DNA of 62,304 nucleotides, counting the filler, from Myxococcota bacterium (GTDB taxonomy: Bacteria > Myxococcota_C > UBA6777), in the NCBI GenBank assembly GCA_023150835.1. It is 3 parts of 3 records of this genome, joined end to end, with 100 filler letters (N's around TTAATTAATTAA, not from the genome) between each part and the next. Parts side by side here need not be neighbours in the genome. Positions count along the whole stretch, not along the records: positions 15,568 to 47,080 come from JAKLKB010000151.1; 2 more parts are not named here. The stretch is one strand, 5' to 3'. Under the pieces are notes generated by a model, which searched no databases, had not been told where the DNA came from, and saw nothing but the letters and a program-made list of their open reading frames with translations. This document shows, piece by piece, positions 15,468 through 47,180 of this stretch; the first letter of the stretch is position 1, and each line of letters opens with the position of its first letter. A program made the position numbers and the translations under genes.

Positions 15468-15567
15468 NNNNNNNNNNNNNNNNNNNNNNNNNNNNNNNNN
15501 NNNNNNNNNNNTTAATTAATTAANNNNNNNNNNNNNNNNNNNNNNNNNNNNNNNNNNNNNNNNNNNN
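15468..15567. other. Artificial contig linker
   Basis: N44-TTAATTAATTAA-N44 (stops in all six frames). Confidence 0.98.
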
Positions 15568-15821: not shown

Positions 15822-15884
15822 AGCACACCTCATCCCCCCGAAATCACATCACCTCATATCCCCGAACCCTTGGAGGTTTTCAGC

Positions 15885-16877
15885 ATGTCAACAAAGATGA
15901 CACCAGAACAGATCGATAGTCTGAGACAATCACTCGACGAAAGCATCCAAGCAGTAGAGCGTGGCACCGGAATCGCTATCGCTTACCCGCCACTGCCAAC
16001 ACTTACGCAGCGTCTCAAACACTCGATGTATTCGTTCTTTGGGGCGTTCAACGATCCATTTTTTATGATGATGTTGTTTTTCTGCGTTGGCGCAAGCGCA
16101 GCTTTGACCGAAACATACCGAACGGGCGGGATCGTGTTGCTTTTTTGCTCAACGCTTTTGTTGGCGCACTTTCACTACGCAATGGAGCGAAAAGATCGGC
16201 AGCGGCGGATGCTCTCGGCCTTGGGGGAGGTCGCCGTCATGATCTCGCAAAAGTTTCAGCCGCAAGGATGGCTTGCAAACCAAGTCACCGAGGAGCCAGA
16301 GTCAAAGCAAAAGCCTCCTTTCGGCAAGATCACCTTGATAGCGACCAAGCGACGACTTGCCAGACTCATCCTTTCCAGACTAGCCGATGCCTTGGGTGGG
16401 TTGATGATGCAAAGAAATGGTGGTGAAGTTGAAGCGATCAACGTGAGGAGGCAATCTATCATCTTGATGGAGCGAGCGTTTTGGAAGGTCGCAAACCTTA
16501 TCGATTTCCTCCCCAAAGAGGAGAACGATCTCGATATCGGCGCTGTATCCAAAACATCAGACAAGTCCGAGTATTTGGATTCTGTGATCGATTTCATCTA
16601 CGGCATCCTCGATGAGAGCGGAGCAACCATAAGCATCCGACAAAAAGTGATCGCCCTTTTTTTGGCGCTCCAGATCACTCGAAAGCTCGAATATCTCCCA
16701 CCTTTGGAGCAGACCGAAGAGTGGAAAGCATGGAAAGAACGCAATCGAAAAAAAGCCGAAGGTTGCGAAGGTTGCGAAGGTTGCGAAGGTTGCGAAGGTT
16801 GCGAAGGTTGCGAAGGTTGCGAAGGTTGCGAAGGTTGCGAAGGTTGCGAAGGTTGTCGGGAAAGCGTTGACGTTTGA
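15885..16877 (+). CDS. Hypothetical membrane protein with an (EGC)11 C-terminal tail
   Basis: ggagg SD; two hydrophobic segments; 9-bp repeat tail. Confidence 0.7.
   Translation: MSTKMTPEQIDSLRQSLDESIQAVERGTGIAIAYPPLPTLTQRLKHSMYSFFGAFNDPFFMMMLFFCVGASAALTETYRTGGIVLLFCSTLLLAHFHYAMERKDRQRRMLSALGEVAVMISQKFQPQGWLANQVTEEPESKQKPPFGKITLIATKRRLARLILSRLADALGGLMMQRNGGEVEAINVRRQSIILMERAFWKVANLIDFLPKEENDLDIGAVSKTSDKSEYLDSVIDFIYGILDESGATISIRQKVIALFLALQITRKLEYLPPLEQTEEWKAWKERNRKKAEGCEGCEGCEGCEGCEGCEGCEGCEGCEGCEGCRESVDV
16758..16856 (+). repeat. 9-bp tandem repeat gaaggttgc x11
   Basis: Read directly; the last unit is gaaggttgt. Confidence 0.97.
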
Positions 16878-17047: not shown

Positions 17048-17392
17048 TCAAGAAATTCCAAGCAATGCAGCGAGTTTTGCGCGAACATCCTCGACGATCT
17101 CATCGTCCGCTTTTTCGATGAAAGAGGCTTGGCGCACTCTCCAGTCGAGACTCTTGACTTGGTCGGAAAGCACGCATCCTGTGGTTTTCATCCTCGGACT
17201 CAGGAGGACAAGGAAATGGCTTCTCGTTTTTTGGCTTGTGATGGGGCAAACGATCACAAGGCTGCTGAGTTGGTTGTAGCTGGCGGGAGACAACACAAGA
17301 GCAGGACGACGTTTGGCTTGTTCTCGTCCAGCTTGGGGGTTGAAGTCGATAGAAACGATATCTCCGATGTCTGGGATGTAGGGTGTGCTCAA
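17048..17392 (-). CDS. mazF: MazF/PemK endoribonuclease toxin
   Basis: GDIVSIDFNPQAGREQAKRRPALVLS, VCPITS, LSDQVKSLDWRVR; TTG start overlaps the mazE stop. Confidence 0.95.
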   Translation of the reverse strand: MSTPYIPDIGDIVSIDFNPQAGREQAKRRPALVLSPASYNQLSSLVIVCPITSQKTRSHFLVLLSPRMKTTGCVLSDQVKSLDWRVRQASFIEKADDEIVEDVRAKLAALLGIS

Positions 17393-17640
17393 TCGATGAC
17401 CTCCGCCCCCACTTCTTCACCTACGCCGATTTCTTCGTGAAAGTCTTCGGGCGTCAGGCCAGCAAGAAGCTCTTCAAGTATGTAATGTCGGCGTTTTTTG
17501 ACGGGCTTGATCACCAGATTGCCATCTGATATCTCCATCTGCACACTTGTTTTCGCCGAAAGCTCTAGCTCTTTTACGATGTCTGCGGGGATTCTCAGCG
17601 CCAAACTGTTGCCCCACACGGAGATGGACGCTTTGCGCAT
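17389..17640 (-). CDS. mazE: MazE/AbrB-family antitoxin
   Basis: WGNSLALRIP, LVIKP, LEELL, VGAE; SD aaggagg. Confidence 0.95.
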   Translation of the reverse strand: MRKASISVWGNSLALRIPADIVKELELSAKTSVQMEISDGNLVIKPVKKRRHYILEELLAGLTPEDFHEEIGVGEEVGAEVID

Positions 17641-17693
17641 ACGATGCCTCCTTTCCATGTCTTCTTGCTGCTCACAAAACGGCAGAGAAGAAC

Positions 17694-20172: not shown

Positions 20173-23100
20173 CTATGCCTTCCACCAGATGTACTCGATG
20201 TTTTTGCGACCCTTGCCGGACTTGCCGATCTTCACGTCGACCTCGATGCCCTTCTCTTTGTATCCCATCCGCTTGGGTGGTCTCATATTCTCGTATCCTG
20301 TGATCATCACGGGGCCACGAACCTTTGAAAGAGCCGTCAACACTTCGTTGTAGTCGTCCATGTTGTAGCATTTTCCGCGCTCTCCGTAGCCAACATGACA
20401 GGCTTCGGGGTACGGCGGATCGACAAACCACGTCACATCCGAACGATCTTTCAAGTCTTCGATCATGTCCAAGGCATCGGCGTAAATGATTGCCTTGCGC
20501 ATCTCCTTTGCGGCTTCCTTGATCACCTGCAATCGGCTTGACAAGAGCTTGTCCGTTGGGAACTGGAACCGCCCAAAGGGATCACGGAAAATGCGATGAT
20601 GTAGGGCTTTTGCGGCCTTGTACTCATCGCCAAGATCAAGCTCTGTTTGCAGATGATCCTCCACCTCAAACAAGAGCATCTGCCGGAAAAGGGTTTCTGG
20701 ATTGCCTTTTTTGAGTCGCTGAAAGACCTCGCGGATCTCGCTGTTTTGTTCGGCAAGGTAGATCTTCTTTGCGCCGTAGTTTCTGGAGACAACGGCAGAT
20801 CCAGCGAATGGCTCCGCAATGTTGTCTGTACCGATCTTTCCCAAGATATCCCGAATGTGCGGCCAAAGCTGGTTCTTTGCTCCGATGTGATAAAACAGCG
20901 GCGTGGGCTTGTCTCCCTTGAAGAGAGCAGGGTTGTCTCTGTATCCAGAGAGCCAGCTTTCAAAGTGTTCTTTGTAGCTTGTTTCGGCAAGCGGAATCGA
21001 CCGAATCGGCATGATGATGTGAATTTCGCCGTTCCCACGCCGCACACAGATCGGCTTGCCGAAGGCCGATGATTTGTTGATCGGGTCTTGGTGATAGAAA
21101 GATATCTGCGAAACTTCGCTCTCATCGCCGCTTTGGAGGGCTTGAAGAAGATAATTTCCGTTGACGTGGATCTCATGCGCTTGATGATCAGAAGACGCAA
21201 GCGCGTCAGAAGAAAAGTACACACGAAAGAAATCGAATCGTCGGGATAATTTTTCGCTGAAGTCTTCGTGGTACGTCGGAGCGAAATAGACTCCCTTGTG
21301 ATCCACTCCAAGCGTAAGAAAATTAAACCGAAATGCGGAAAGCGTTTTCATCATCAAGGCGAGTATTTGTTGCGCCTTAATTGTGTTGAAAACAACCTTT
21401 ATTCGGGGGATTTGTTTGGCTGTATGCTTTTTAACCTTCTCTTCTTTGCCCAATATATCGAGCATTGCGATCAATGAATTGGTGGGGTAATGCGAAGGCA
21501 GTATTTTTCTCTTCTCCACAGAACCATAGCCAAAATCGTCCATGCGTAGTGTTGTGATCTCTCCGTCGTTTGCGTAAGAGGTCGGGATATAGGCGGCGCG
21601 ATGTCCATTTGTGGCGATGGCATAGGAGTTGTGGAAAAGAATGCCAGTAAGATAGCTCCGAAGCTCCGCGTTGTCGTCATCTTCTTGGAGTGCGAACCTA
21701 TCCGCTCGCTGCATCGCCTCAGTGCGGAGCTTGAGATCAGGTGTGATGTGAAGCGCCTTCTTTGGCTTCCCATCAAATTCTGATGCCGTAAATCGCTCCC
21801 AATCGTCCCCAACCACCTGCTTCCAGTCATCCAATGCGCGAAGCTGAAAAATCACAGCGTCCATATCTTCGGACTTTCGCTCCACAAGCTCGCCTTGTCG
21901 ATTGCGAACCACATCCCCTTTTCGATTGCGGATGGTGTAGAAGTCAACCCACTCTCCAGCGTCCTTGTCATCGGGTTCTGGAACCCACTCTTTGCTTTTC
22001 TCGATGGTGTAAAGGGGCTTGTATGTTTCAACGCTTGCGGGAGAGGATTGCGCGTTTTTTGTCGGATGCGCTGGCGTTATCGCTCCGGATGTGGCGACAC
22101 TGCTTTCAGGCTTTTTTTTCGCTGCCACCTGCAAACTGCTTCCAAAGCTGCACCGCTGAACCCAAAACCCCCAGCGCATCGACCGTTGAATCTGCGGCCT
22201 TTGTACCATAGTGGATAGGTTGCCCAAGCTCCTGTGCGATGCGCTCGACATGGTAGAGATAGACCCATGCTGGGAGATTGCCGTGATCGCTCGCGTTCAA
22301 AAGAGGCTCGATCTCTTCGATGGGAAGGCGCAAATTGGCAAGATCTCGTAAGGCCGCTTGTGTCTCCATCTTGTCAGCCCATCCTGAAAACAGCATGGGG
22401 ATAAATGTTCGTGCAAAGTCCATGATCCCAGCTTTGGGGGGAAACCACGACTTGCCAAGTCCCTCAAGAACTCTCAAGTTCTTGAACTCTGCCTTGTGAA
22501 CATCTGTTAAGAGCTTTTTGTAGTACGCAAAGTGATCGCCATCCATGCTTAGGCCAAGCATGCGCTCCTTGCGCTCCATCGCGGCGAGTTGTTGCAGCGC
22601 ATTCAGTGTCGCTCGGTAGTCGCCTCCGCTGCTTACGAGGTTCTCGTATTCACCCGAAGCGATAAGGGCTTTGTTTTCTTCCCACCAAGCGAGGATGTTT
22701 TGGCCCATCCGTAGATACGGGAACAATTCAATAGCCTCTTCTTCGTCACTGTCTTCGATCTCTTCGACATATTCGGACTCTTGGGCTTTTTCTGCGACGT
22801 CTTTCACCGTGGCTTCTGTTTGGCGCAACGAGTTGAGATGTTCCAAGAAACGCTTTGCGATATCTTGCTCTTTTTTGAGTCTGTTGTTTCCAAGCAGCGC
22901 AGATGCCGCAGGGATCGTTTTGGAGAGCAGTTGCTCCGCAAACATACGGGCATCGACTTCGGAGGAGAGCGTGTGCAAACGCAGGCCCGACTCTTGGTGC
23001 ATCACTTCAAACGCTCCATCGGCGTTCTTGTAATAGCTGAGACCTTTCTTTTCGTACCCATGCGTCTCGAATCCACCGTGATTCTCGCCTTCTACATAGG

Positions 23101-24211
23101 TCGCCACGCGAACATGGTTCACCCTCAACCATCCCTCGCTATCGAGTTCTTGCTGGATCTCGCCCACCTCGCTGTTTCCGCCCTTTGTCGCAGCCTTCTT
23201 TGGTGTGGGCACATGGGCCTTTTGGTTTAGCGTCGTGGTCTTCTTTGTCTTCGGAAGGACGGACTTTTCTTCGTCGGGGATCTCTTTGGGATCGGGTGGC
23301 GGAGTGCCTTTTTTCAAACCTTCCTTGCCGTAAGCCGACTTGAACCGCGCAAGCTCTTGCTCTGCTTTTTCGATCTGCGCCTTGATGCCGCGTTTTTTCG
23401 CCTTCGCGAGCTTTTCTTTTCTGCGTTCGATCCCTGCACGAACAAACGCCGCAAGTTCGGCCTTCCAAGACTTTTTGAGTGTTTCCAAAAAAGCCGACCA
23501 TGTGGACGACTTCGGCTTTCCGTCGAATCTGTCGGCGTATTCGACCTGATCGTTTTCCTTGTCGAGTGCTGTGATGGTGTAGTTGCAAGCTGCGCTGTCG
23601 TGGGGGGCGATGCGTACCACATCCCCTACTTGCAAACGCTCGATCCAGTCGGGGTTCATGCGACCATCGCGCACATAAAAATACCGATTGAGGCGTTTCC
23701 GCGCAAAGGACGGACATTCGGGGTTTTCGCGGTATCCGCTGTAGCGCGTCGGAACCCACACCTCGCGCCCACCCAACAGAATAGCACCCTCTGCGATGCG
23801 AAAGGATGTCTTGTGGTCAACGTAGTGCCATCCGAGATCATCGAATGGGGCATAGCTGACACGGCGAAAGCCCATCCGCTCAATGATCTCCCGCGCATAA
23901 TCGGCATGTTCGACGACTGTGGGAGGATCATGCGAACACAGATAAGCGTGGACGTTGCGTTGGTTCTCAGCCATCGCTCGCTTTTTTCCAGCCTGTTCAA
24001 CGCGAGGAAAGACCACGCCATTGAAGATCACCGCTTGATCTGCCGAAAGATGCTCGATCACCTTGCCCTTGAAACGCAAAGACCAGCCGCCTGTATGCAG
24101 ATTGCGATAGAGGCAATACGCAGCGCCTTTTTTGGCAGGTTTTCCCGAAGATTCTTGTTCTTCAAACCAGCGATCCACGGGGTTGTTTTTGTCGTTTGCA
24201 CCGTCGTACAT
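20173..24211 (-). CDS. Polyvalent protein (~1345 aa if the A8 frameshift at 22112-22119 is corrected): YRNLH phage domain, beta-clamp-like domain, Dam-like DNA adenine methyltransferase
   Basis: ORF 24211-22106 and ORF 22251-20173 join by removing one A. Motifs: YRNLH..WS..RNVHA; RSYLTGILF..ATNGHR..NYLLQAL..IIMPIR; YHIGAK..EPFAGS..FVDPPY. Confidence 0.7.
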
Positions 24212-24221
24212 GGTCTTTTCC

Positions 24222-27200
24222 TCACGAATAAAGGGCTTCTTCGAGATCTTCTTTGTATTTTTCGGTGGAGAGGATGCCGCGTGGGACTTTTCGAGCAAAC
24301 CAAAAGTCCGCAGCGTCTTGGAGGTCGGTGTGGCTGAGTGATTTGTCCAAGAGGCCCTGCTCGGCCATCTGCAAAAACGCACGCCATCCGTCGAGATGGA
24401 ACGCCAAGACCCGTCCGTCTCTGATCCCTTCTTGTTTGGCGATCACGAGCTTGCCTTGTTTCACCACAGGAACACGTTGGCCGCGACTGTAATATCCAGC
24501 CGTACCTGCGAGTGCTTCCGTGATCTTGGCCCCCAGCCGCTCCCATACGCGGCGCATGAACTGATCGGAGGCATACTGCCAAGAAAAAGAGGAGCTTGCG
24601 ATGCCTTCTGAGAGCCTCCAGTCCCAACCGCCGAGAGCTTCTAGCCCTCTCAGCGCCCCTTCAAGATCCGCATCAAAGTCCCAAGAAGCATGGAGGTTTT
24701 CTGGCTTCAACATGCTGATCGCAGCGTCTTTCGCTTCGTATGCTACAAAATCGTAGGCTCCGTAGCGTCGAACGCCGACCTTTTCCCCTCGAACGCGCCC
24801 AAATTCCGCATAATCCTTGCGGTCGCTGTAGGCGCTCTTGACGCCCACACGGAGACCTTCGTAGAGAACCACCCCGGCGTCTCCCACCAAAATCTCTTTT
24901 TCCCGAACATTGACAGCCCATGGATAGAACGGCCATGCCTGCGGGTCGAGTTCGCTCAACTCCTCCAATAGCTCCTCACCTTCTGCGCGGAGTTGTGCGG
25001 CGATCTCGCCCGTCTTGTACTCTGCCCTGCGGAAACGAGCGTTGGCCTTGTAAAGCGTTCTTCTTGCATGTTCGGCAATTTTTGCGCGGCGCTCGGCCTC
25101 GGCCTTTTCCTTGAGCGCATCAAGCATTTGGCGGGTTCGCTCCGGGTCGCGTGAGATCATCAGCAGGATCTCGTCGGGGCCAAGGTTCATCTGTGCGCCG
25201 GGGTTGTTGGTGTCGCGGTCTTGGGACTTGATCAAGTTCACCATCCAGCCGCGTTTGCCTTGGATCAGGTTGAAGCGCATCCCGTCTTGGCTGCGTTTGG
25301 CGAAGTAGTAGTTGATGGCGATGGCATCGAGCGTGTTGCCTTGGCGTACCCCACGTCCGTTGCGTTGTTGGAGCGTTGCAGGCTCCCAAGGCAGGTCGAT
25401 GTGGTGGATCTCACAGGTTCGGCGCTGTAGGTCGATACCTTCGTAGGCAACGGCGTTTGCCACCACGACATCGTATATTGGGGCCGTCTCGTCGCTTCCA
25501 TTGAACTCTAGAGCGATGCGTTGACGATCTGCTGTGTTCTTCGCAACGACGGCATTGAGAACGGCGATGCGCTTTTCTGGGACGCCGTGTTTCACAAGGG
25601 TTTGCACGATCCAACGATGGGCTGCGACGTTATCGCAAAACACGATATGACCGCAGTGTTGCGCTGCATTGACTCGTTTGGCCATCGCCTTAAACTTCGG
25701 AGAGATGGGGTCAACATCGGCACTGGCCGCCGTTTTCCAGTCGTAGCCCTCGTCGAGATCGGAGTGAATCGACACCAGCGCCATCCTTGCGAGTAGTCCA
25801 AGGATTTGTGCCTTATCCCGCATGTCCGTGCTTTTGAGCGAATCCTCGATCTCTTCGACGTAGCCTGCGTATTTTCGCTCCTGCGCCTGATCCATGTCCA
25901 CCTCGATCACATTGACCGTAGGTTCTGGCAACACAAGTCCCACATCTTCAGCCGTTTTGAAGTCTGCGTAGCGGAAGATCACTTCTCGCAGCTCATGGAG
26001 GTTCTTAAAGCCGACCACCGCAGACTTTGAGGTGATCTGCATATCGGTTCCGATCACTTGCTTGAGTTCGATCTTCAAGTAGCGGTCGATGAATTGCTCA
26101 GGATCGTAGATGCCCATACGCTCCCAAACCTTGGGATCGATCATCTGGAGCAAGCTGTAAAACTCCAAGGGGCTGTTTTTTGCGGGTGTTGCGGAGAGTA
26201 GAACGATCCCCGTCCCGCCTGTTTTTTTGACGAACAGCGTTGCAACGGAAGTCCATCTGCCAAGCGCGGTTCGAGCCTTCGCCAGCGTTGCCCATGAAAC
26301 GAGGAACCCCACCTTCGCGTGCTTCGGGCATATAGAGGTTCTTAAAGTTTTGCGCCTCATCGACCACGAGCATATCCACGCCGATATCGTCCCACGCGAT
26401 TCCGGGGTCGTACTCCCACGCTTCGGGGATCTCCATCTTTTCCGCGATCCAAGCTGCAACGCCTTCTTTGAGCAGGGCTTCTTGGCGCTCTGTGATATCG
26501 CCCTTGCCTCGATCTCGTTTCTTGGCGTTTCTCTGCCTCAGCTTGATCTCGCGCTTGATCGCCTCGACGCCATCGGCATATTCGCGCAGGGTATCTTCAT
26601 TCATGCGCGTTCGTGCGAGCGCGGAGTAGGTGAGGATCACCACGTCATACTCACCCGCTTGAAAGCGCGTCCACTTTTCAGCCCGATCTTTCGGCGTATC
26701 CGTCTCGCTTGTCACTTGGCCTTTTTTGTCCCCCACCTTCAATCGTTTCATCTTGGAGCCGATCACTGCGACCCGATAGTCGGGAAGGACGCGCTTGATG
26801 TCCGCTGCCCACTTCCATGCAATCGAGTTGGGAACGACGATCACAGGGCGTCTGCACCAGCCTTCTTGACGCGCCCTTGCGATCACGGCGATCCCTGTGT
26901 AGGTCTTGCCCACGCCTACATCGAAAGCCAACATCCCGCCTCGGTTTGTGAGAACGCGCCTTGCCCCCGCAGATTGGTGAGGATGGAGCTTGATATCGCC
27001 CTTTGTCCAACGAGCGATCTGGATGGGTTCGTTGCCGTAGTTTGGCTCCACATAGCCCTTGAAGAGGCGGTTGTAGGTGCGCTCGATCTGAGCCTTTCGT
27101 TCTTCGGAGGCTGTGATCCAAGAACGGAACGATTGTTCCCATGTTTTCGCCTGCTCAAGTCGCTTTTCGTCAAGATCGTCGTTCTTTTTCTTCTTGAGCT

Positions 27201-29811
27201 TGAAGTTGCTCATATCATGGTTAATCCACCCCAATATCGGGCGAATGGAGTCATAGATATACGAGCCTTTGAGGTGGGTGTCGTCGAGGTTGTCGTAGTC
27301 GATTTGTTCGTGATCGAGCGTGACGATGCCGTCTTTGCGTATCAGCGTGTTGATTTGTCTTGAGCCGTAGATCGTGACCGTTTCGTTGATCCACTGCGTG
27401 ACCAACTCCAAGGGAACCCAACCCTGACGCGGGGAAATGTCTTCGATATCCTCAAACACGGATGGATTGATGGCTTTGAGAAGGCGCTGTTCTTGGAATT
27501 CAAGTTGGCTTTGGAGAGCTTTGTCGTTCTTGTCATCCTTCATCTTGGCGCGTAGTGCGTCATATTTGAGCCACAGATCGCCGCTGAGGTAGTCTTGTTC
27601 GGGGTAGAGATGAGTGCCATCGATGCACCATCCACCTTTGAACAACTCAGCCAAGCCCGTCTTTTTGAGATACGAAAGCGCGACTTGCTGATCCACCCGT
27701 GTTTGTTGGCTCCAAGCCTCGGCGATCTGGTTCAAAGAAAGCTCTTTGTTGGCCCTGTACGCCCACTCTGCTACCGCGAGGATGTCGCCTGCTTTCCCGG
27801 TGAATCGAGGTGTCCACACAGGCTTGTTCTTGATGCCCTCGATCACGTCGCCTGTTCTCGTAAATGCCGAGAGAAAGCGTTGTACCGCCGTGTTGTCTTT
27901 CTTGATCAGGGCGTTCAGCCCTTTGTGGACGTGAGGGTTTCCATACGAGCGAACCCACGCTTGCAAAGAGGCCGACAGTTCGGGCCACAACTGGACGTGT
28001 TCGTCGCTTTCTTGGGAGGAGAGAGCGGCAAGGTAGCGATCCACCCGCGCACCAAGCTGGACGGCCAGTGCTTCCGCTTGTGAGAGACCGTCTGTATCGG
28101 TGCTGATGCTTCTCGTCACACCCGAAACAAGGGCGTTGGCTTTCTTCTTGGGCTTTGTTTTGGGGCGTAGGGAGTCTGCCAAAGCCTCCTCTGCCTCGAA
28201 CGAGCGGACGTAGTGGGCTGCTTCCACATACGTCCCTTTGGGCATCTCGCGCTCGACAAGTTCGGGCAATCGGTCAAACTCACCCACAACCTGATAGCCC
28301 CATCGAGGCTTCTTGGTTTGGTCGTCTTCTCCGCCATCTTTGCCAACTTCGATACCAAGGATGTGTTGTGGGTAAAGCTCGAAGTAGCGGCCCTCAAGGA
28401 TCTCTTTGTCGGTCTCATGCACTTCTGTGAGTTCAACGCCACGCGCACGGAAAAACAACAGATCCGTGACCAGTTCCGCCCCCGGAAAGATCCCCGAAGG
28501 CAGGCGATACGCGGCGGAAAGATGGTGTCGTTTGAGGATGGTTTCTCTGAGCGTGATCGCTGGCTTTCCTTGGCCCGTCATAAACCCGCTGGGGATCAGA
28601 AATACGCCCATCCCTTCGGGGGCCAAGAGATCAAGACCACGGCGCAGAAAGTAGGCATAGGCGCGTTTCTCTCGGTATTCTCGATTGGGATCTTCTGTGA
28701 TCGATGCACCACGCGGCCCGTAGGGAGGGTTGGACAAGACCAATCCGATCTTGCCGTAGAATTTGTCTTCGCTTGCACGAACCCACCGCTCGAACGGCCC
28801 TTCAAAGACGTGTAGATCGGGACGCATCGCTTGGAGCATCCGCGCAGACAACGCCGACCACTCGACCACTTGCCAGTCCAAAGACGAAAAGCCTTCTCCA
28901 CTGGCGGCTTGCACAAAGCGCCCGATGCCTGCGGAGGGTTCGAGCACAACAACCTTCTCATTCACCTTGGGAAGTTGATGGATGTAGGGACGGATCACAC
29001 GCGCCACTTCGCGCACGATCTTTGTGGGGGTGTAGTATTCGTGGATCAATCCGCGTTCTTCGGGTATGGGGAACCCTTCGGGAAACTTGTCAGCATACTT
29101 CTTCATCGAAAGACCACCCCAGCCCGAATACTGCGAGAGGATCACAAAGTCCTCTTGGGTCATCTCTTGCGGAGATTTTGTGGCCGCAAGTCGCATCGCG
29201 GCGAGGTTGGCTGCTTCACGCTCTTTGGCTCCCCAAAGGTCGGGGGAGTCGGTCGAAACCTCAAAGCCCCTCTCGATACGTTCTCCACGCCGCTCTTGTT
29301 GAACCTCGAAGGTTGTCGCCTTCGCTGTGGTGCTTGTCGATGCTTTGGAGAGCGACGCTTTGGGCTTCTTGGCCGCTTCTTTGATCTCGAAGGTTCCCTC
29401 GGTGCGGTCGCCTTCCTCTTGTTGCTCTCTGTATGCAAGTAGCTCTTTGGCAAATTGTTCGGCAGCTTCTTGGCTCTTGAATAGAAAGCCGTGTTCTTTC
29501 TTGTACCAACCGTAGGTCGCACGAGCCTTTTCAAGCCACCACTGGAAAGCATCACCCAACGGACGTGGTTGACGCACCACCCACGCCTTGATCTGTTGCC
29601 CCTTGGCGGTGGTGTATTCGATTTGTGCAAGTCTCCCCCGTCTCTGCGAAGGTAGAGCTTTTGGGGTAGCCTTTTGGGAGCTTCCCTTGGTCGGGCTGGC
29701 CTTGGCCTTTGCTTGGGAGGGTTTTGCGTTGGACGGAGCCTTGAGCCCTGTTTCGCTGAAAAGGTCAAGGTCTTCCAGTCCTTTGAAAAGATCCAGTTTG
29801 TCGAGATCCAT
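24222..29811 (-). CDS. DarB-like giant N6-adenine methyltransferase plus SF2/SNF2 helicase (~1860 aa; frameshift at A7 run 26222-26228)
   Basis: YSGWGG, EYYTP, LEPSAGIGRF, SNPPY; FDVGVGKT, VVDEAQNFKN, then in the next frame LLSATPAKNSPLE, EGIDLQ, PWEPATLQQRNGRGVRQGN. Confidence 0.88.
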
Positions 29812-31786: not shown

Positions 31787-32397
31787 CACGCGGCCTTTGC
31801 TGCTTGTTGGCGTTTGTAGAGATACACGCCGAGGGCGGTTGCGAGGGTTGTGGCGACGGCCCCTGCGAGATACTTGCCCCAATGCCGTTGAAAATGACTG
31901 CTGCTTGTGGTGCGGATAGCCTTTTTCTTGGCGGCAGATTGGGCGGCTGCGAACTTGGCTGCGTTGGCTTGGGCGGCAAGTTGCGCTTGGCGCTGGAGAG
32001 CCGCTGCTTCTGTGGTACTTTTGGCTTGGGCGATCTTGAGCACGAGTTCTTGTTGCTGCCGTTGGGCATCGGCTTGGAGCGCCGCAACTCCGACTTTGGC
32101 CCCACCCGTAAAGAGAGCATCCAACCCCTTGGACAAGGCATCTGCCCAATCTGCGCCGCTTTCTTCATCGCTGTCATCATCATCCCCAGCGAGAGAACCC
32201 TCTGCACAACGGCAAAGGTAATTCACGCGCCGTTGGTTGGAGTAACCCATCTCAGATGCATAAGATTTTGCCATCTGAAGCAGCTCAAGGGTCTTGGGGG
32301 ATTCGAGGGGCATCTGAGAGATATGCTGCAAGGCCACAGCGCGAACATGTTCGCTTGGATAGGCCAAGGCTTGCTCAATGGTGTGAATGGCTCGCAC
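31786..32397 (-). CDS. Ala/Gln-rich coiled-coil protein with C-terminal TM anchor
   Basis: GTG start with aagga SD; YLAGAVATTLATALGVYLYKR. Confidence 0.7.
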   Translation of the reverse strand: MRAIHTIEQALAYPSEHVRAVALQHISQMPLESPKTLELLQMAKSYASEMGYSNQRRVNYLCRCAEGSLAGDDDDSDEESGADWADALSKGLDALFTGGAKVGVAALQADAQRQQQELVLKIAQAKSTTEAAALQRQAQLAAQANAAKFAAAQSAAKKKAIRTTSSSHFQRHWGKYLAGAVATTLATALGVYLYKRQQAAKAA

Positions 32398-32992
32398 GGC
32401 GAGTTCCTTTCTTTTTCTTCATTTGCTTTGCGGGGAGGCGTCGGAAGGGGTCGATGATGAGGGCGACGTGGATGCGCTTGCACATCTCTTTGGCTCGCTT
32501 GCCAAGACTTGGATCGACGGCAACCCATCGCCCATGATGGCCGTCGATGGCGGGTTGATAGGCTTGTGCAAAGACGTGTTGATAGCGAGGTCGCCCGTTG
32601 GTCTTTTCGGGAGGTTGGTAGCCAGCAAGCACAAGGTAGGATTGGACGCCCAAGGCCCACAACATCGCAAGTGTGAGGCTCGCAAAGCTGTCGCAGTCTT
32701 CGAGAACGGACTCACCCGCAAGCAAACGGGTGTAGATCCGCTCAGGACTGTAGTGTAGCTCAATGCCCTTGGGGTCGCGGATGTAGGTGACTTTCTCCGA
32801 AACAAAGGCATGGACGGCAGCGATCCGTGAACGCACTGAGTGTCCCAAGTCCTCATGTTCGGGAATGGCTTGCTCCACAAGCAATCGACACTCGTTGACG
32901 TATGCCAAGTTGTGTTGGAACCGCAGCGCAGATGCCGCGATCCGTAGACCTGTTTGGATGGGGTTGACCCGCTCGACGCGCTCTACTTCCAT
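32375..32992 (-). CDS. Transglutaminase-like (papain-fold) Cys-His-Asp enzyme
   Basis: VTYIRDP, EDCDSFA (Cys), YQHVF (His), WVAVDPS (Asp); SD aggaga. Confidence 0.85.
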   Translation of the reverse strand: MEVERVERVNPIQTGLRIAASALRFQHNLAYVNECRLLVEQAIPEHEDLGHSVRSRIAAVHAFVSEKVTYIRDPKGIELHYSPERIYTRLLAGESVLEDCDSFASLTLAMLWALGVQSYLVLAGYQPPEKTNGRPRYQHVFAQAYQPAIDGHHGRWVAVDPSLGKRAKEMCKRIHVALIIDPFRRLPAKQMKKKKGTRRASHSHH

Positions 32993-33232
32993 ACTCTCCT
33001 CCTGAGTGGAGGCCGCGTATGATAGGGGGGAGCGTTCGAGGTTTGTGGAGCGGATCGAGTGAACAAAGAAGCGGCGCTTTTCGTGAGGCACCTGAAGAAC
33101 GGCTTTGGTAGCATTAAGCGTTCTACACAGAACGAACTCTCAGCGACCATCGCTGTACAAATTTCTCAGCGTTAGTATCGTCTTTTCGGAGACAAGCCGC
33201 AGATGAGACCAAAGACAAAAAGGATTCCTTGC

Positions 33233-33426: not shown

Positions 33427-33562
33427 TACGAGCGTTCTGCGTGATGGATTTCTTTCATTTTACACTGATGTCTCTTTTCTTTTACACAATGGACACTTTT
33501 TATGCTAAATATCCAACGATACTTTCGCAAAGATAAATTTCTACTTCTTGCAAGGAGTTCGA

Positions 33563-36500
33563 ATGACATCTCTTCTACAACCAAGAGTGTATGGTTATAT
33601 CTCTCGCTCAGATCAGAACCCTGCACAAGTTTGGGTGCGAGTTTATGATCGGAAGCTTCGAGAAGAACGATTGCTTGGAGAAACTTCTACCACAGCTCTT
33701 GGTTTGTACGAGATCTCTTATGAACTTGCGGGATTTTCCGCGCATGAAGAGGGAATCGCCGATCTTGTTGTGCGCGTCTTTCAAACGGAAACATCGCCGA
33801 GTCCTCTGATCAGTTCGGAGACCCACTTTCGAGCTTCTTACAACGAACGTATCGATCTCCAGATCCCACAGGTTCCGACGCTTTCGATGTTTTCATTTCT
33901 CGAACAAAAAGCACAGCCTTTCCTTACAGAAGCGTCACTTGCTGGACCACAGTTCTTACTGGATGACGATCTGTCCTTTCTTTCGGGGCGTCTGGGATTG
34001 GCAGCCTCTACTTTTGAGGCTTGGCGCTGGAGTTATCAGCAAGATCTCTCAGGGGTCTCGATCCCTCCGATGTGCTTCTATGCTTGGAGCCAACAAGGAC
34101 TTCCTCAAACTCTTTCAGTTTTACTACAACAAAGTCCACAAGAACTCGAATTCACCTTACGACAAGCTGTCGCACAACAGCAGATTCCCTCCGAGATCGT
34201 GGAGCAGATCCCCGCGTTGATGAGCGGACTTTTGCCTGTGCAAATCAACTCGTTGCTCAACGAACCAAACAAGCCCGAAGTGGCTGCGATCGTCGGCTTT
34301 ATGGAATGGATTGAAGTGGGCATCGCAGATCGAGAGATCTTTGCCCAAACCTATCTCCAACACCAAACGTTGGGAGATGCGCTTTGGCTTGATTTACAAG
34401 AGAATCCGGAGTTTCGAGGAGATCTCGAAGTCCTTCAATTTGCCTCCATACTTCAAGGTGTTTGTGAATCCAAGCTCCAGCTTCTTGAACAAGTGTGGAC
34501 AGAGCATGCCCAAAATCTCGTCGAGATGGCTCAGATGAACGTGCAGCAATGGCGGGACTGCCTTGTCTTTGCGGAACTTCCTTCTTCAATCTCAGATGTT
34601 TTGGTCGTCATGGATCGTGTAGAAGATACTGTTCCCACCCTTTTTGTTGCACACCAGATGGTTTTGGAAGACGCAAACTTTTCACAAGTCTTTGCCAGTA
34701 TTCTTGATCCCAACGCAACTGATCTTTTTTCGCTGAAAACGAGTTACCTCGAACAAGTTTTCACAGAACATCCCCAACTCTTCGATGGTCTTGCAAACGC
34801 TACGTCTCTTCAACAACAACTGAAGGCTACGCAGCGGCTGTATAAGCTCATCCCGCGTTATCGACATGCCAAACAACTCCTTGATGATGGACTCCATTCT
34901 GCACAAACCGTGAGCCAACTTGGGCAGAATACCTTTGTCTCACGCTACGCGGAAGATCTTGGTAGCGAGGCGCTCGCCTTGGAGGTTTACCAACGAGCGG
35001 AATCCATCACTGAAACATCTTACCTTCTTCTTGGACAGTTTCATGAGACACTAACGAACCAACGCTTGCCTTCGGTCTCTTCAGGGATCCCGACTCCCCC
35101 CGTAGAGATCCCGAATTGGTCATCCTTGTTTGGGCATTTTGATCTTTGTGCGTGTGCTTCTTGCCAGTCCATGACAAGCCCAGCGGCTTACTTTACTGAC
35201 CTTCTCCACTTTTTTTCATTTCGTAAGAATTCTCCGTCTTCGCCTTCTGCGGAAGAAGTCTTGTTGTCTCGGCGTCCAGACCTTGGAGAGATCGAGCTAA
35301 GTTGCCAAAATACGCACACAAAGATGCTCGCGATCGACCTACTCAACGAGGTCTTAGAAGATCTGCTTGTGCCTCCACCTGCCTTTTCTCCGCCTTCTTC
35401 TGTCGCCTCAAACAGTGATCTCCTTGGCACTCTCGGGCAAAGCAAGCTTCCTTCCTCTTTGGTCTCTGCGTTTGGGCTTGATGAGAGGGATCTTGTGGAA
35501 GTGGTTGTCCCCAAAACAACATGGCGCATCCATACTTCGGCATTCAGTTATTTGCTTGAACATGACAGTGACGCGGGAACTTTGCAACTGACAAAACGCA
35601 GTCGGCAAACCTACGGCGAAGAAAGCGCTTTGCGTATCCACCCAAGCTATCTCAATACGAACGCTTACGCACAGATGAAGGCGTCGAACTATCCATGGGA
35701 CGGGTGTTTTGATTTGTGGGAAGAGACCTCTCGCGTGTTCTTACAGCGTCTTGTTGTACAGCACCATGAACTTCGCCAAGCGTTCCAAGAGCCAATCCAA
35801 GATCTCTCATGCCATTTTCTTTTTACGCAGGAGCAAACAGCGCGATCTTACTTGAAGATCAACGAGTACGAAGCTCTGATCCTTCAAGGAACGAGTGGGG
35901 CCGCGCTCTTTGAGCTTTGGGGGCTGGAAAGTGCAGGGGATGTGGATTCTTTGGACAATCTGGCTATTTTGCTTGAAAGATCCGGGATTTCGTATCAAAA
36001 GCTCCAAGACTTACTTCAAACGCGTACGCTGAATCCCACGCGCTCGATCTCCATCGTTGGCCAAGATCCAAATGACCCGAATGATCTGGATGATCCTGCG
36101 ACGTGCGATCTCGCAAAGTTGTACCTCGCGGGTTATTCACAAGCCTTTGCTGCAAAGTTTGTGCGGTTTGTTCGACTCCAAAGAAAGTTGTCCTGGACAG
36201 CAAGAGAACTCGACCTTGCGTTGGAGATCTTTGCACCTCAGTTGCCAGAAGCACAAGCCACACTGTTTCAAGAGCTTGCTTGCGTGGACTTTCTCTCGAA
36301 AAGGTTGAAACTCTCAGTAGAAGAAGTTTGTCTTTTTTGGGGCGATTTTTCCTTGGAAGGAGAGAAGACGCTCTACCACAAGTTGTTTTTGGAACCGAGC
36401 CAAAGCTATCCGCTTGCCATCTCTTTCTCGCCTGTCGTGACGGTCTCTTCACTGCAACCATCGTTTCATACGACAACGCTTTCTGTGCTGGATGCACTCT

Positions 36501-39500
36501 CGCAAGCCACACTGTTGCGCTCTCTCCATCTCCAAGAAGACGAGCTTTTGTTGATCTTTCCCAACGGATCTCCGCAAGCGACCAACACAACGTTAAGCAC
36601 GTTGGCAAGGCTTGGGATCTTGGCTCGTTCTTTGGGGCTTTCAGCAACTTCTTTGTTACAACTCAAAGATCTCCTTGGACTCGATCCTTTTGACACGAAT
36701 GATCTCCACCAAGCCATGCGTTTTGTGTACGTGGCTGAAACACTTCGAGAACTTGGGATCTCGGTGGATGCGTTTCGCTATCTTGCAAGGGGCGAAGGAT
36801 TCGCGTTTTTTGGAATCCGCGATGAAGAGGTCGCAAACTTTCTCCAACCACTTCGTTTGGCCCTGCGCGCCGTGAACGAAGCTTATACTTTGGGAGAAAT
36901 GGAACATCGAGCGGTTGTTCAGAGCGGGCGAGAACAGCTTGTTTCGCTGATGTGGTCTTCAAGGTTTGTGGATCGACTCCTCCAACATTTGGACGATCAG
37001 GCAGCCTACCACGTCTCGCTTGCTGAACTCCCAGCAGGCTATGTGTTCCCTGCCACGCTCCAAGAACAGATTCACTATTCCACCGACACACAGACACTTT
37101 CTTTTCAAGGTGTGATGTCGGCGAGCCAGAAAGCCATCTTGGATGCCAGTACATCCAACAACCCTTTACTGAACGCTTTCCAAGTCTTGTACAACTCGGC
37201 GCGTGATCTCGTACTTCCTTGGCTCGCTCATCTCGAACCGCCCGACTGCTCGGTTGCCCTGAGTTCTTTGCCATCCTTCACGATCCCTCGTTTGTATCAA
37301 GAGCGATTTTTCTACCCTATCGGAACACAAAGACTTCACTTCATCGGGTGGATGGAGGAAAACGAGAGAGATGAGCTTTTGTCTCTGCATGCCGATGTAG
37401 GCTATCAAGCTGCGGTTCAATCGCTCTATACCGCATCTCACCAAGCCCCAAACCCAGCATTTTACACAACAAGCGAAGGAGAGGCGCTTCTCGAAGAAGA
37501 AAAAGAAGTGCGCTTGCGCTCCTTTGTCGAAAAGGTCTTCGCTTGGGGGCGTCAGAAACAAGCCCGCGCGACAGTCCTACAGCAAACGAGCCAAGCCTTT
37601 TCATTGGAACTTGATGTCACGAAGACACTTCTTTCAGTCTTGCCTTCTGTTTCTCCCGAAGTGCAGAGTGTTTTGGAGACCTTGTCTGGCTCTCGGCTTC
37701 CGCAAAGCCATGACACTCTCGCGTGGACAGAAAGCAACTTTGACGTGTTGTTTCAAGATGTCCGAAACATCGCACGCTTTACTCTTTTCATCCGCCATTT
37801 GAAACTCACGAATCCTTCGGCGCAGATGTTCCTCACGCATGGCGAAAGCAAAGGTTGGTTTTCTTTCTCTCCGCAATCTTCGCTTTCTTTGTGGTTGTCT
37901 GTGCCTAACGGACTCGCGTTGACCTCTCTCCAAAGCTCTATCTCCTCGAAAGGTTTGGAGGAGATATGGGGGGTCGCTTTTGCTGAGAACACGACAAAGG
38001 CAGCCATCCACGCTGTGCTCGTGCGTGTGATAGGCCTGACAACAAACGATCTGATGGAGTTGGATGCAGCGTTCAGCTTGGTTCTCTCGTCCTACCAAGC
38101 TCCTGAGGTATTGGAGCGACTACAAAGATGTGCCAGATTGCTTGCATCCCTCGGTGTCTCCGCGCAAACAGCGCTTTCATGGTCTCTGACCTTGTCCGAG
38201 ATGGAGACTGCCAATGCGATCAAACAGGCTGTCAGAGAGCGTTTTGGCGACGAGCGGTGGGCAGAGATTGCCACGCCTCTCCAAGATCAACTCCGCGAGC
38301 AACAGCGGGATGCTCTGGTCTCACACTTGTTAGCATCCCCTCACAAGGACGCACAGCAACAACCTCTTTGGCATCACATAGAGGGTCTTTACGCTTATCT
38401 CTTGATGGATCCGCAAATCAGTCCTTGTTTCCAAACCTCTCGACTCAAACACGCGATCAGTTCGGTGCAGTTGTTTGGGCAACGCTGCTTGTTGGGGTTG
38501 GAGTCGCAAGTGACGGCAGATAGCCAGCAAGACGATCAGTGGGAACAGTGGCCGTGGATGAAAAACTATCGTTTGTGGGAGGCCAATCGCAAAGTCTTCT
38601 TGTATCCGGAAAATTGGATCGAGCCGGAGTTGCGACCTGATAAATCGGCTTTTTTTGAAGAGCTGGAAAGCGAACTTTTGCAAAGCGAGATCACCCAGCA
38701 AAGTGCCGAAGATGCTTTGCGCCGTTATCTCGAAAAGCTCGATCAAGTGGCACGTTTGGAGATCGTTGCGTTTTACCACCAAAGAGATGCGCGGCCTCGT
38801 ACTGATATCTTGCATGTTTTTGGGCGAACGCCATCCCACCCACACGCCCACTACTACCGCCAACGTACCACAGAAGGTCGTTGGCTCCCTTGGGAACGCC
38901 TTGATCTCGATATCCAAAGCGAACATCTGCTTCCCGTTTTCTGGAACCAACGCCTTTGTTTGTTTTGGCCGACCTTTGCTGCTATGCCAACCGCCCCAAA
39001 AGAGCCTGCTTCCAACAATGGACTGACTTCGAAGTATTGGGAAGTTGAGTTTCAATGGAGCGAAAGAAGCGGAAAGACTTGGGGGCCTGCTCGTAAGGCC
39101 AACGAAAAACTGGTTCTTCTCCAAGAGAGCGGAACTGCTCAACCGGGTTCCTTTGATCCACAAAGCTATGTTTTCTACGTAGAACCCGACGGGATAGACT
39201 TGGCGATCCTTTATGCACATCGACAATATGCATTGAAATACGATATTTATGCTTTACTTCTTACACCAAATGGGAGTTCCTTTAGGAAGAAAAAAACGTT
39301 CAATCTGAGTCAAAGCCCTTTGAATTTCCGCAATTTCCCCAACACAAGAGAGTACGCCAACCGACTTATCGAAGATCTCTACGACCCATCTTCCGAAGGG
39401 TGGAGCGCCTCAGTGGTCACTTCGACCGCGAAAGGCAAGCCTGTTGAAATGCGGAAGACCTCGGAAGAACGGCGGCAAAACTCCTCTCCTTTTGTGCTGT

Positions 39501-42500
39501 TCCAACGTACCTCGCAAGTGGGCCGTCCTCCCTATCAATTGGTCTTTGGTGCGGATCAATTTCTTTACGATGCAAGCCCACGCGTTCAAGGGTTTCTTTT
39601 TGATGCGCCCGTGTTTTTCCAAGATGATCGTTGCACTTTTCTTCTTACACCAAAACAATCGCTCTCTTACACATCGACGAGAGATGAAAACAACCAACCG
39701 ATCACTTTCGAAAACATCGAAAAAGAAGGATATCAACTCGACTTTTTCTATCATCCTTGGTCAAAGCTTTTTCTTCGGGAGCTTCGCGCACGCGGATTGA
39801 AGGGCCTCTTTCATCGAGAGTTGCAATCCACTCCTACATCATACCCTCATACGGAAGTTCTCGACGTTGTCGCTTCTTACACGCCAACAAAGCGACTCGT
39901 GACGAAGGATGCCTTTGGAGATCCGTTGAGCTTTGACGAAGAAGTCAGTTTTCGACGCGAAGATGTCTACGCTTTTTACAACTGGGAGCTTTTCTTCCAC
40001 GCGCCTTTGTTGATCGCAGAACAGTTGCGGCGGAACCAACGTTTTGCAGAAGCCCAAGCATGGTACCATGCAATCTTTCGCCCCACCGATTCTTCGGGCT
40101 TTTCTGCACCTTCTCGTTACTGGCAAACCAAAGCTTTCTTCGAGGAATCTTCTGGAACACCAAACTTCTCGATTCAGTCGCTGCTACAACAGTTTGCACA
40201 AGGAAAAAGCCTTCCAGCCCTAGAAAATCAAATCAAACAGTGGCGGGCGAATCCCTATCAGCCCCATCTCATCGCGGAATTACGTACCTCTGCGTATATG
40301 AAGACGGTGGTGATGAAGTACATCGACAATCTCTTGGACTGGGGCGATCAATTGTTCCGCCAAGAAACCATCGAAAGCCTTAACGAAGCCGCGCAACTCT
40401 ACATCTTGGCGTCGGAGTTGTTGGGGCCTCGCCCCCAAGTCCTACCTCCCCAAAATAAGCCACAAACGCAGACGTACAACAGCATCAAACCCTCCCTGGA
40501 TGCTTTCTCAAACGCAATGGTTGAGATCGAACATCTTGTTCCTTATCAAGAAACGATCCCACAAAACGGAAGTGTCGCATCGTCGTTTGTCCAATCAAAA
40601 ACACGTTCTCCGATGCCTTCGTTGCCCAAAGTTCTTTCTTTTTGTCTCCCCATAAATGAGCATTTAGCCGGTTACTGGGACCGTTTGGAAGATCGACTCT
40701 TTAAACTGCGGCACTGTATGGATCTTGAAGGTCGGGTGCGCCAGCTACCTTTGTTTGCGCCTCCCATCGATCCCAGCATTCTTGTTCGCGCAGCAGCAAC
40801 AGGTGTAGATATCGGCGAGGCTCTTCACGACACCCACGCAGCGTTGGCTCCCTACCGTTTTGTTTTCTTGCTTGGAAAAGCCCAATCGTTGTGTGCTGAG
40901 GTGCGGCAACTCGGCGAAAAGATCTTGTCTTCTCTGGAGAAAAAAGATGCCGAAGAACTCTCGTTGCTGCGGGCAAATCAAGAAAAGCAATCCCTCGAAC
41001 GCTATCGACAAGTGCGACAGCTTCAAGTTGAGGAAGCAAAAACGGCCCTCGAAAGCCTCCAAAAAACCCGTGACGTCATCCAAGCGCGTTTGGACTACTA
41101 CCAGTCTTTGGAAAAGATCAGTCCCAACGAGCGCACAAACGTGGAAAAGTTAAAACAGGCGCAAGAATACAGCTCTATCGCACAATATATCCAGATGGGG
41201 ATCTCCATCCTGCACGCCTTTCCCAACTTCACTTTTGAGGTGGGCTTATCTCCCACGTTCGCTTCGACTTGGGGAGGAAGCAACATCGGCTCTTCTGCAC
41301 AAGCTGTCGCTACTTTTTTTCAGGCCCAGGCCTCCCATGCAAGCCATGAAGCCGCGATGGCTTCGATTGAAGGTGGACACCAACGTCGTTGGGAGGAGTG
41401 GAAGCAACAAGAGAAACTTGCTGAGAAAGAGCTTGCACAAGTGGAAAAGCAAATCGCTGCTGCAGATCTGCGACTTGCTATCGTAGAGAAAGAGTTGGAA
41501 CAGCACGAGCGGCAAATCAAAAACGCCGAGACCATCGAGGCTTTTCTGCAGGACAAATACACGAACAAAGAGTTGTATCGTTGGATGACAGGACAACTCT
41601 CGAATCTCTACTTCCAGACTTACCAGTTGGCTTATGAGATGTCCAAGCGGGCCGAACGCGCCTACCATTTTGAAGTCGAGACCCAAGAAAAGATGGTGCA
41701 GTTCGGCCATTGGGATCACCTCAAACAAGGTCTTCTTAGCGGTGAACGCTTGGCCCATGACCTGCATCGTATGGAGTCTCGCTATCTTGAACAGCACAAA
41801 CGCACGTTCGAGTTGACCAAACGCATCTCTCTTGCGTCCCTTTCTCCCGCTGCTTTGTTGCAACTCAAGCAAGAAGGGGCTTGTTGGATCGAACTTCCCG
41901 AAGTGTTGTTTGATCTCGATTTCCCCGGCCACTTTATGCGCCGTATCAAGACGCTTCAGGTCACGATCCCCTGTGTGACGGGCCCTTACACGCAAGTCAA
42001 CGCAACGCTGACCCTTCACAAGCATACCATCCGCCACCGCAAAGACAGCACGGGTGATTACGCACGCCAGTCCGAGGAAGATGCGCGCTTTACGGATCGT
42101 TTCGAGGTCACTTCCATTGCGATCAGCCGTGGTCAGGAAGATGGTGGGATGTTTGAAACCAATCTACGCGATGAACGCTATCTTCCTTTCGAGGGGGCGG
42201 GCGTGATCAGTCGCTGGCGTTTGGAAATGCCCACGCCCTATCGCGCTTTCGATTACAACAGCATCTCTGATGTGGTCTTGACCTTGCTCTACACCGCACG
42301 GGATGGGGGAGAACTCCTCAAGCAAAAAGCCCTCGCATCTCTGGATGCTTCTGTCAACGCCATCGCGCAAGCGATCCAAGAAAGCGGCATGTTACGTAGC
42401 TTGAGCCTCAAACAAGAAGCTGGCACCGCATTCCACGCTTTTCTTCATACACCCTTGAGTGGGAATATGGCCCATAACACGACCTTTTCGATAGGGCGTG

Positions 42501-42846
42501 AACACTTTCCCCACCTCTTCCAACACAAGGAGCTCTTGTTGAAACGCGTCTCCCTCTTGGTTGCTTTTCGTGACAAGGAAGCTGGCCAGCTGGGGAGTTC
42601 TCTCTTTACGTTGCGTCTGGCCCGTACTGCGGAAGGAAATGGACAGTCGATCGCTCTGACCCAAACCAGTGGTCTGGCTGGACTCCCGGTGCTCTTGCAA
42701 CACAAGAGACATGGAGATTGTGGGCTGACACCAACGCTCTGTCCTCGTTGCCGAGTTCCTTCCTCACCGCAGAAGGGCAACTCAAACCCGAAGTGGTCGA
42801 AGATATCATCCTTTTGCTTCACTACCAGATCGACACCACAAATTAA
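33563..42846 (+). CDS. Tc toxin complex subunit A-like protein (~3100 aa; frameshift near 42685)
   Basis: CxCxxCxSxxSPAAYFTDLL, RRPDLGEIELSC, YRLWEANRKVFLYPENWIEPELR, YNWELFFHAP, DERYLPFEGAG; the conserved tail VEDIILLLHY lies in another frame ending at 42846. Confidence 0.9.
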
Positions 42847-42930
42847 AAGGCCGAAATCCTAGAAAAAGACTTGCTCTGTCGAGAAGAAAGCCTAGCTTTC
42901 AGAGACTTTTCTCACAAAGGATTCGTGTGG

Positions 42931-47080: not shown

Positions 47081-47180
47081 NNNNNNNNNNNNNNNNNNNN
47101 NNNNNNNNNNNNNNNNNNNNNNNNTTAATTAATTAANNNNNNNNNNNNNNNNNNNNNNNNNNNNNNNNNNNNNNNNNNNN
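47081..47180. other. Artificial contig linker
   Basis: N44-TTAATTAATTAA-N44. Confidence 0.98.

Follow-up and report, generated by a model that had tools for sequence, protein, structure and literature searches.

The window analysed here, a 62,304-nucleotide stretch of DNA from a Myxococcota bacterium, encodes two neighbouring multi-module proteins, P0007 and P0011, each of which carries one copy of a near-identical heptapeptide, SGYRENP in the former and SGYRDNP in the latter (Table 1). It is possible, at somewhat less than an even chance, that the two peptides are copies of a functional short linear junction motif of the approximate form [G/S]-[Y/F]-[K/R]-[D/E]-Asn-Pro, a proposal built from sequence comparison. 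The motif probably marks the N-terminal edge of exchangeable modules, in flexible linkers of phage-type multi-module proteins that contain a domain resembling gp82 of mycobacteriophage L5 (the gp82-like domain). Copy 1 begins 5 residues past the end of the gp82-like domain of P0007, in a stretch where the AlphaFold2 predicted local distance difference test (pLDDT) is below 50, between two confidently modelled domains. Copy 2 lies 18 residues past the equivalent of the end of a related protein, P0008 (residue 376), and about 11 residues before the match to a Dam-type (D12) methylase. The sequence-only reading, which had described the likeness as one of protein and placed both peptides at domain boundaries, is confirmed in its observation: the copies separate the gp82-like domain from the following unit (module X) and a clamp-like region from the methylase, and the DNA encoding them matches at 14 of 21 bases, the codons for Ser and for Arg belonging to different codon families. 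A DNA-level repeat or a recent duplication was set aside on the same figures. The pattern GYR.NP has these two matches only in the six frames of the window and, on the available alignments, the motif belongs to neither of the neighbouring domain families.

All four informative relatives keep a motif of the [GS]Y[KR][DE]NP type. At the position of copy 1 (site 1), FSGYRENP is found in P0013 (82% identical) and AGYKENP in P0008 (54% identical), which is P0007 fused in frame with the front part of P0011; at the position of copy 2 (site 2), P0012 has SYKENP and L003, a 98% identical fragment, has SGYRDNP. The N-terminal half of P0012 is unrelated to the window, and its homology starts at the motif itself. 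Across four metagenomes, the sole variant found at copy 2 is a synonymous change (20929 A>G, CCT>CCC). In P0009 and P0010, homology to the window is lost directly after the gp82-like domain and the motif is absent; the zincin-bearing protein P0045 has three copies of module X, each without the motif, and P0011 and P0012 carry the motif without a gp82-like domain. Conservation in homologs, the check on which the sequence-only reading had made its proposal depend, is present in these four proteins, with the site-1 part saying little (see below), and the motif also recurs in multi-module proteins, both related and unrelated, either at a joint or as an island on its own; it probably behaves as a signal rather than as an accident. 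Searches of genome, viral and metagenome contigs with the P0007 alignment (A1) returned zero related loci, and those with the P0011/P0012 alignment (A2) returned zero in genome contigs and a single 1.4-kb, 98% identical fragment in metagenome contigs. Zero matches were also obtained with blastn of positions 20173-24382 against plasmids and with tblastn of the linker plus the Dam part against phages and plasmids, and none of the 5 further genomes searched in the phylum contains the window protein P0003.

Taken within the window, the motif pair alone is not significant, since 76% of 300 shuffled versions of the four large open reading frames (ORFs; 3,208 residues) contain at least one heptad pair at 6 of 7 identity, with a mean of 1.9 windows. 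The case for the motif rests on evidence from outside the window. In the outside test the window served only to define the pattern, and its own lineage was then excluded. The pattern [FY][KR][DE]NP occurs 3 times in 17,188 residues of non-redundant multi-domain gp82 proteins, versus 0.06 expected, and in a permuted-order control covering the 120 orderings of the five residue classes this order alone gives 3 matches, 10 orderings give one and 109 give none. Two of the three matches, in P0174 and P0185, lie in a common island, P-x-[YF]-G-x-YFKDNP, without flanking homology. The motif is found 0 times in 14,702 residues of stand-alone gp82 proteins, and ORFs from 80 viral loci contain 1 match to [FY][KR][DE]NP in 242,672 residues, where this order ranks 37th of the 120. 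In the genome of the bacterium, GY[RK][DE]NP occurs at the two places described here only (4.01 M residues, ORFs of at least 200 residues, all frames). Y[RK][DE]NP is found 5 times in genome ORFs versus 1.5 expected, and [FYW][RK]xNP 69 times in the host genome versus 67 expected; the motif shows no general enrichment. In the four large ORFs, [RK]xNP has 5 occurrences against 0.64 expected (1 of 1000 shuffles), a pattern that was picked after the fact.

Related lineages probably use their own "dialects" of the motif, ending in Asn-Pro and usually bearing Lys, Arg or Gln two residues before the Asn. When the 35 residues before the gp82 domain were compared with the 35 after it in the 26 proteins that have both flanks, the top three flank similarities were all Asn-Pro hexamers, namely KFKSNP/KFKKNP in P0081 (p=0.003), ERQSNP/TRQSNP in P0010 (p=0.007) and KSNPVD/KSNPTD in P0169 (p=0.007); P0081 and P0169 are 68% identical, so that this evidence amounts to two independent lineages. 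Of these proteins, 6 have an Asn-Pro within 30 residues of the gp82 domain at each flank, 2 at a single flank and 18 at neither (Fisher p=2e-4), and K, R or Q occupies position -2 of the Asn in 11 of 18 flank Asn-Pro sites versus 12 of 53 elsewhere (p=0.007), counts that include related sequences and the lineage of the window and whose independence is thereby overstated. In P0009 and P0010, the gp82 domain is inserted within a DUF5824 domain, which is uninterrupted in gp130 of the Pelagibacter phage HTVC008M, and RQxNP brackets the insert on both sides. Two large viral sets contain almost exclusively stand-alone or zinc-ribbon-fused gp82 and zero new Asn-Pro junction forms; scans of viral sequence aimed at P0174 and at the P0081/P0169 lineage yielded no useful matches.

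Several observations weigh against a functional motif, and some of them favour a chance resemblance, an unlikely alternative in which two ordinary linkers with six of seven residues in common have been kept through close kinship and the outside matches are coincidental. Besides the frequency of such heptad pairs in shuffled sequence, three other short repeats are present in the same proteins, the nine windows observed making up 4 distinct heptad pairs (FDGKPK, SGYRxNP, IKEAAK and YVEEIEDS), a number of windows reached by 1 of 300 shuffles. The repeat YVEEIEDS is exact over 8 of 8 residues, at 22748-22771 in an acidic linker of P0007 and at 25839-25862 inside the SNF2 helicase (both on the minus strand, with 18 of 24 bases in common), and it is unconserved in two relatives of P0007, P0008 and P0014, so that short repeats do arise at this locus without being conserved. 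The site-1 region is overall about as conserved as the motif it contains, and motif conservation there consequently says little. Outside replication consists of three matches, two of them from related gp82 lineages; the 18 of 26 multi-domain gp82 proteins that have no Asn-Pro on either flank point the same way, as does a second set, of 75 viral loci, with 5 non-redundant multi-domain forms and zero Asn-Pro in the flanks listed. The motif is present at 2 of about 7 joints of the window proteins and missing from about 5 others, too few for a viral-type polyprotein cleavage code, in which the same motif occurs at most joints, and the break between P0013 and P0014 falls in a Lys/Pro-rich linker without Asn-Pro. 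Mere coincidence, on the other hand, does not readily account for the fall of both copies in linkers, which form a small share of the sequence, for three matches with this order versus at most one with any of the other 119, for the P0174/P0185 island within otherwise unrelated sequence, for a site-2 homology that begins at the motif, or for the restriction of GY[RK][DE]NP to two places in 4.0 M residues of genome.

Asn-Pro forms an Asx-Pro turn, and a structural element of the linker, a rigid turn or helix cap that separates domains, is preceded by loosely constrained residues and is read by nothing, is a rather unlikely explanation of the two copies. It draws on the genome-wide over-representation of Asn-Pro (8,972 in the genome proteins versus 7,057 expected), on an Asn-Pro density in gp82 flanks only about twice that elsewhere, and on the weaker RxNP-like sites that the sequence-only reading had listed beside the two strong ones. 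KNNP and RMNP each coincide exactly with the opening turn of a predicted helix and are poorly conserved: KNNP is replaced by YGNP in P0013 and its region is missing from P0008, and RMNP reads RLKP in P0008 and QINP in P0013. These two sites look like ordinary helix caps in the structural model rather than copies of the motif. The strong copies, in contrast, lie in low-confidence coil and not at a helix start. Nor does a turn explain the conserved aromatic-basic-acidic triplet that precedes Asn-Pro, the P0174/P0185 island, or the closer resemblance of motifs within one protein to each other than to those of other lineages.

From the position, the conservation and the recurrence of the motif, which are observed directly, we infer its recognition; the reader of the motif and the cutting of a bond belong to this inferred part of the proposal. 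Most likely, the motif would be read by another factor. The first option is a processing site whose cutting would detach the N-terminal gp82-like domain (~17 kDa) and the C-terminal Dam-type methylase (~29 kDa) from the rest of the protein, and the second is a docking tag. Conserved residues precede Asn-Pro and nothing is conserved after it (ECPS and ALFK follow in the two copies), a pattern typical of a protease site whose specificity lies on the non-prime side and equally to be expected of a docking motif. Cleavage at the motif may be a reasonable reading. A more elaborate version, which we regard as quite unlikely, would make the motif one dialect of a so far undescribed code for processing at Asn-Pro, with a cut at or beside Asn-Pro after delivery, made through asparagine cyclisation or by a protease dedicated to it, that would release the gp82-like domain and the methylase, and with the one-chain state set by a poly-A tract of variable length. 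The nesting of gp82 within DUF5824 in P0009 and P0010 counts against cutting, as cuts at both flanks would split the host domain too. Two further candidates, a beta-clamp-binding motif and a 2A-like NPGP skip, were rejected, as the sequences do not fit the consensus motifs.

The sequence-only reading had proposed that a co-encoded transglutaminase-like Cys-His-Asp enzyme, or another protease, makes the cut. It is very unlikely that this enzyme cuts or cross-links at the motifs, and the proposal is unsupported; the earlier interpretation is partly supported overall. The gene is co-oriented with motif copy 1 and lies about 8.6 kb upstream of it, as the first gene of the run, its product scores above the cut-off of Pfam Transglut_core, and Cys, His and Asp appear by eye in the usual order; ESM Atlas look-alike clusters, a lead only, are mostly tailed-phage proteins. 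However, the motif lacks Gln and has Arg at the basic position, a poor fit to Gln-Lys cross-linking, and the peptidases proposed for proteins of this type are zincin-like, with transglutaminase and papain absent from the main text of the study that proposes them (Iyer et al., 2017; PMC5512222). A complex prediction that combined the gp82-like domain, the transglutaminase-like protein and a 51-residue site-2 linker scored 0.01 versus a mark of 0.32 and carries no weight either way. A role of the gp82-like domain as reader of the motif is highly improbable, whether through binding, which would assemble P0007 with P0011, or through self-excision at the flanking Asn-Pro. The motif and its dialects are found in gp82-domain proteins, often on both sides of the domain, within which invariant Asn, Ser and His residues are present; yet every set examined was chosen for having the domain, which makes the association one of ascertainment, P0011 and P0012 carry the motif without it, and in the monomer model the adjacent motif (pLDDT <50) is not docked on the domain.

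Known systems offer partial parallels to the proposed junction motif. Phage internal proteins have prohead-protease cleavage sites, Leu/Ile-x-Glu in T4, and capsid-targeting sequences. Like those sites, the present motif is short, lies in linkers or N-termini, has its specificity residues before the putative cut and exists in lineage-specific versions; unlike them, it ends in Asn-Pro instead of Glu and is found at 2 of about 7 joints, and no capsid, scaffold or prohead protease gene is present on the contig. Self-cleavage at Asn-Pro by asparagine cyclisation is known from the NPTH loop of FlhB/YscU and from Asn42-Pro43 of reovirus mu1, in which the sites belong to folded, catalytically arranged loops. 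The invariant Asn-Pro pair at the candidate scissile position is shared with both, but the motif lies in a linker with pLDDT <50 instead of a folded NPTH loop and has no Thr-His after Asn-Pro. A further parallel lies in the polyvalent proteins that phages and conjugative elements encode. These proteins string together enzyme and DNA-binding modules of unrelated kinds and have been proposed to be cut into modules by zincin-like metallopeptidases (Iyer, Burroughs, Anand, de Souza and Aravind, 2017; PMC5512222). In the passages searched, that study names no cleavage motif, and its main text contains no mention of gp82, linker, NlpC or sliding clamp, nor of the two enzyme types noted above. As in polyvalent proteins, several unrelated effector-type domains are found per chain, the gp82-like domain plus at least 3 modules in P0007 and the clamp-like region plus the D12 methylase in P0011, and a pair formed by a DarB-type methylase and an SNF2 helicase lies next door. 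Unlike them, the window proteins P0003-P0006 have no zincin or other peptidase family in Pfam or PHROGs, the sole candidate being the separate transglutaminase-like gene. The domains are phage-typical: the gp82 domain matches viral contigs at least 579 times, and a DarB-like PHROG is matched as well; no phage packaging or conjugation genes were found by Pfam on the contig that carries the locus.

The earlier description of a polyvalent protein as one chain is not borne out in this assembly. Here the material is divided between two genes, each broken at a poly-A run, and these two runs are the only homopolymers of at least 7 bases within 20173-29811; a single chain does exist in P0008 and in one metagenome, where P0007 and P0011 are fused. 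Tract lengths were compared across contigs of four independent sludge metagenomes (X3, X4, X5 and X7). At the helicase tract, X3 and X4 have one base fewer and an intact gene, and X5 and X7 are as in the window (A7, frame broken). At the P0007/P0011 tract, X3 has two more bases and an in-frame fusion as in P0008, X4 has one more, X7 matches the window (A8, separate frames) and X5 lies outside contig coverage. The helicase tract thus occurs as A6 or A7 and the P0007/P0011 tract as A8, A9 or A10; the forms that result are intact or broken for the former and fused or separate for the latter, and the tracts look phase-variable rather than like plain assembly errors. As tract length varies, whether both motifs share one chain or lie in two depends on the tract.

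Table 1. Positions in the window of the motif copies, the genes and domains around them, the weaker Asn-Pro sites and the poly-A runs.
Feature	Positions	Strand	Protein residues	Support or remark
Motif copy 1, SGYRENP	23740-23720	-	P0007 158-164 (ORF residues 215-221)	
Motif copy 2, SGYRDNP	20949-20929	-	P0011 394-400 (ORF residues 435-441)	
P0007 gene	22106-24211	-	701 residues	gp82-like domain, linker, module X with coiled coil, Lys/Pro-rich linker, two more unnamed modules
gp82-like ("YRNLH") domain	23753-24127	-	P0007 29-153	Pfam PF25735, E=1.8e-9; PHROG 586
Low-confidence linker holding motif copy 1	23660-23737	-	P0007 159-184	AlphaFold2 pLDDT <50 at 159-178 and 180-184
Module X	23327-23653	-	P0007 187-295	small beta domain and long helices
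P0011 gene	20173-22128 (ORF 20173-22251)	-	651 residues	N-terminal region, clamp-like region, linker, Dam-type (D12) methylase
Clamp-like region	21001-21831	-	P0011 ~100-376	label unconfirmed
D12-class N6-adenine DNA methylase domain	20173-20898	-	P0011 411-651	Pfam PF02086, E=5e-10; PHROG 56
DarB-like N6-methylase and SNF2 helicase gene	26098-29811 and 24222-26459	-		two overlapping frames; Pfam, PHROG
Transglutaminase-like (Cys-His-Asp) protein	32375-32992	-		Pfam PF01841, E=8e-7, 29.8 bits versus cut-off 23; superfamily assignment made for 32375-33091
Poly-A run A8 (coding strand)	22112-22119	-		P0007 frame ends; reading passes to the P0011 frame
Poly-A run A7 (coding strand)	26222-26228	-		frame break within the helicase
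Weaker site KNNP	24190-24179	-	P0007 N10-P11	near the N-terminus; opens predicted helix 11-20
Weaker site RMNP	23662-23651	-	P0007 N186-P187	opens predicted helix 187-192
Weaker site RVNP	32971-32960	-		in the transglutaminase-like protein

Positions 15568-47080 of the window are a single 31.5-kb contig of a 7.56-Mb metagenome-assembled genome. This contig is bounded by runs of N at 15468-15567 and 47081-47180, so that features beyond them have no physical linkage to the motif locus. All genes of the locus are co-oriented on the minus strand, in the order transglutaminase-like protein, two unnamed ORFs, the DarB-like N6-methylase and SNF2 helicase, P0007 and P0011; the DarB-like/SNF2 gene (24222-29811) contains zero copies of the motif. 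The ORF of P0007 spans 22106-24382, with a likely ATG at 24211. Its gp82-like domain matches PF25735 with 38 bits versus a gathering score of 27, and the boundaries of the domain were set with our own hidden Markov model (HMM) from 142 relatives; HMMER finds 143 relatives, mostly proteins of about 120 residues. Within the gp82 family (alignment A3), a near-invariant Y-N-P-[YF] is found inside the domain in most members and Y-A-P-F in the lineage of the window, and the family has invariant Asn, Ser and His residues that suggest a possible active or binding site.

The AlphaFold2 model of P0007 residues 1-330, from 43 sequences, has a mean pLDDT of 79.8, with values above 90 in the gp82-like domain and confident prediction also at 187-295. 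A Foldseek comparison of this model with the PDB gave zero matches at E<=0.001, sequence searches of the PDB with P0007 and with the A5 profile gave zero matches, and a wide structural comparison with VIA-align returned helical-hairpin matches alone, at Z <7, for residues 251-302. The model of P0011 is unusable (mean pLDDT 36). Its methylase domain is located by sequence, with residues 14-92 of the DpnM chain 2dpm aligned to residues 411-491 of P0011 and the Pfam D12 match running from residue 415. The term "clamp-like", taken over from the sequence-only reading, stays a provisional label: the region has zero Pfam or PDB sequence matches even at E<=10, and only a lead comes from ESM Atlas, in which its look-alike clusters bear the name DNA polymerase III beta (scores 0.91-0.93).

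Other features of the contig were recorded in passing. An ORF at 15870-16877 on the plus strand ends (about 16780-16877) in some ten CEG triplets encoded by a tandem 9-base DNA repeat, and a small ORF at 17389-17658 on the minus strand resembles, by eye, an AbrB/MazE-type antitoxin. The other arm of the contig carries Tc-toxin-type genes, identified by Pfam only, at 33548-42862, 42871-45420 and 45098-47128 on the plus strand; they comprise a 3,104-residue TcA-like ORF, a TcB-like one and a TcC/RHS-like one, with overlap between the frames of the latter two at 45098-45420; the last runs off the contig end.

The locus is a small, two-copy case of a probable junction motif with a new sequence, and the pentapeptides FKDNP, YKENP, YRENP, YRDNP, FKENP and YKDNP have zero mentions in the literature searched. 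The idea that polyvalent proteins are cut into modules has stood since 2017 without defined cut sites, and a short, exactly placed candidate motif makes it testable. In annotation, the motif would help to divide giant proteins into functional units and, if it is merely a structural turn, it would still mark the points at which modules are exchanged.

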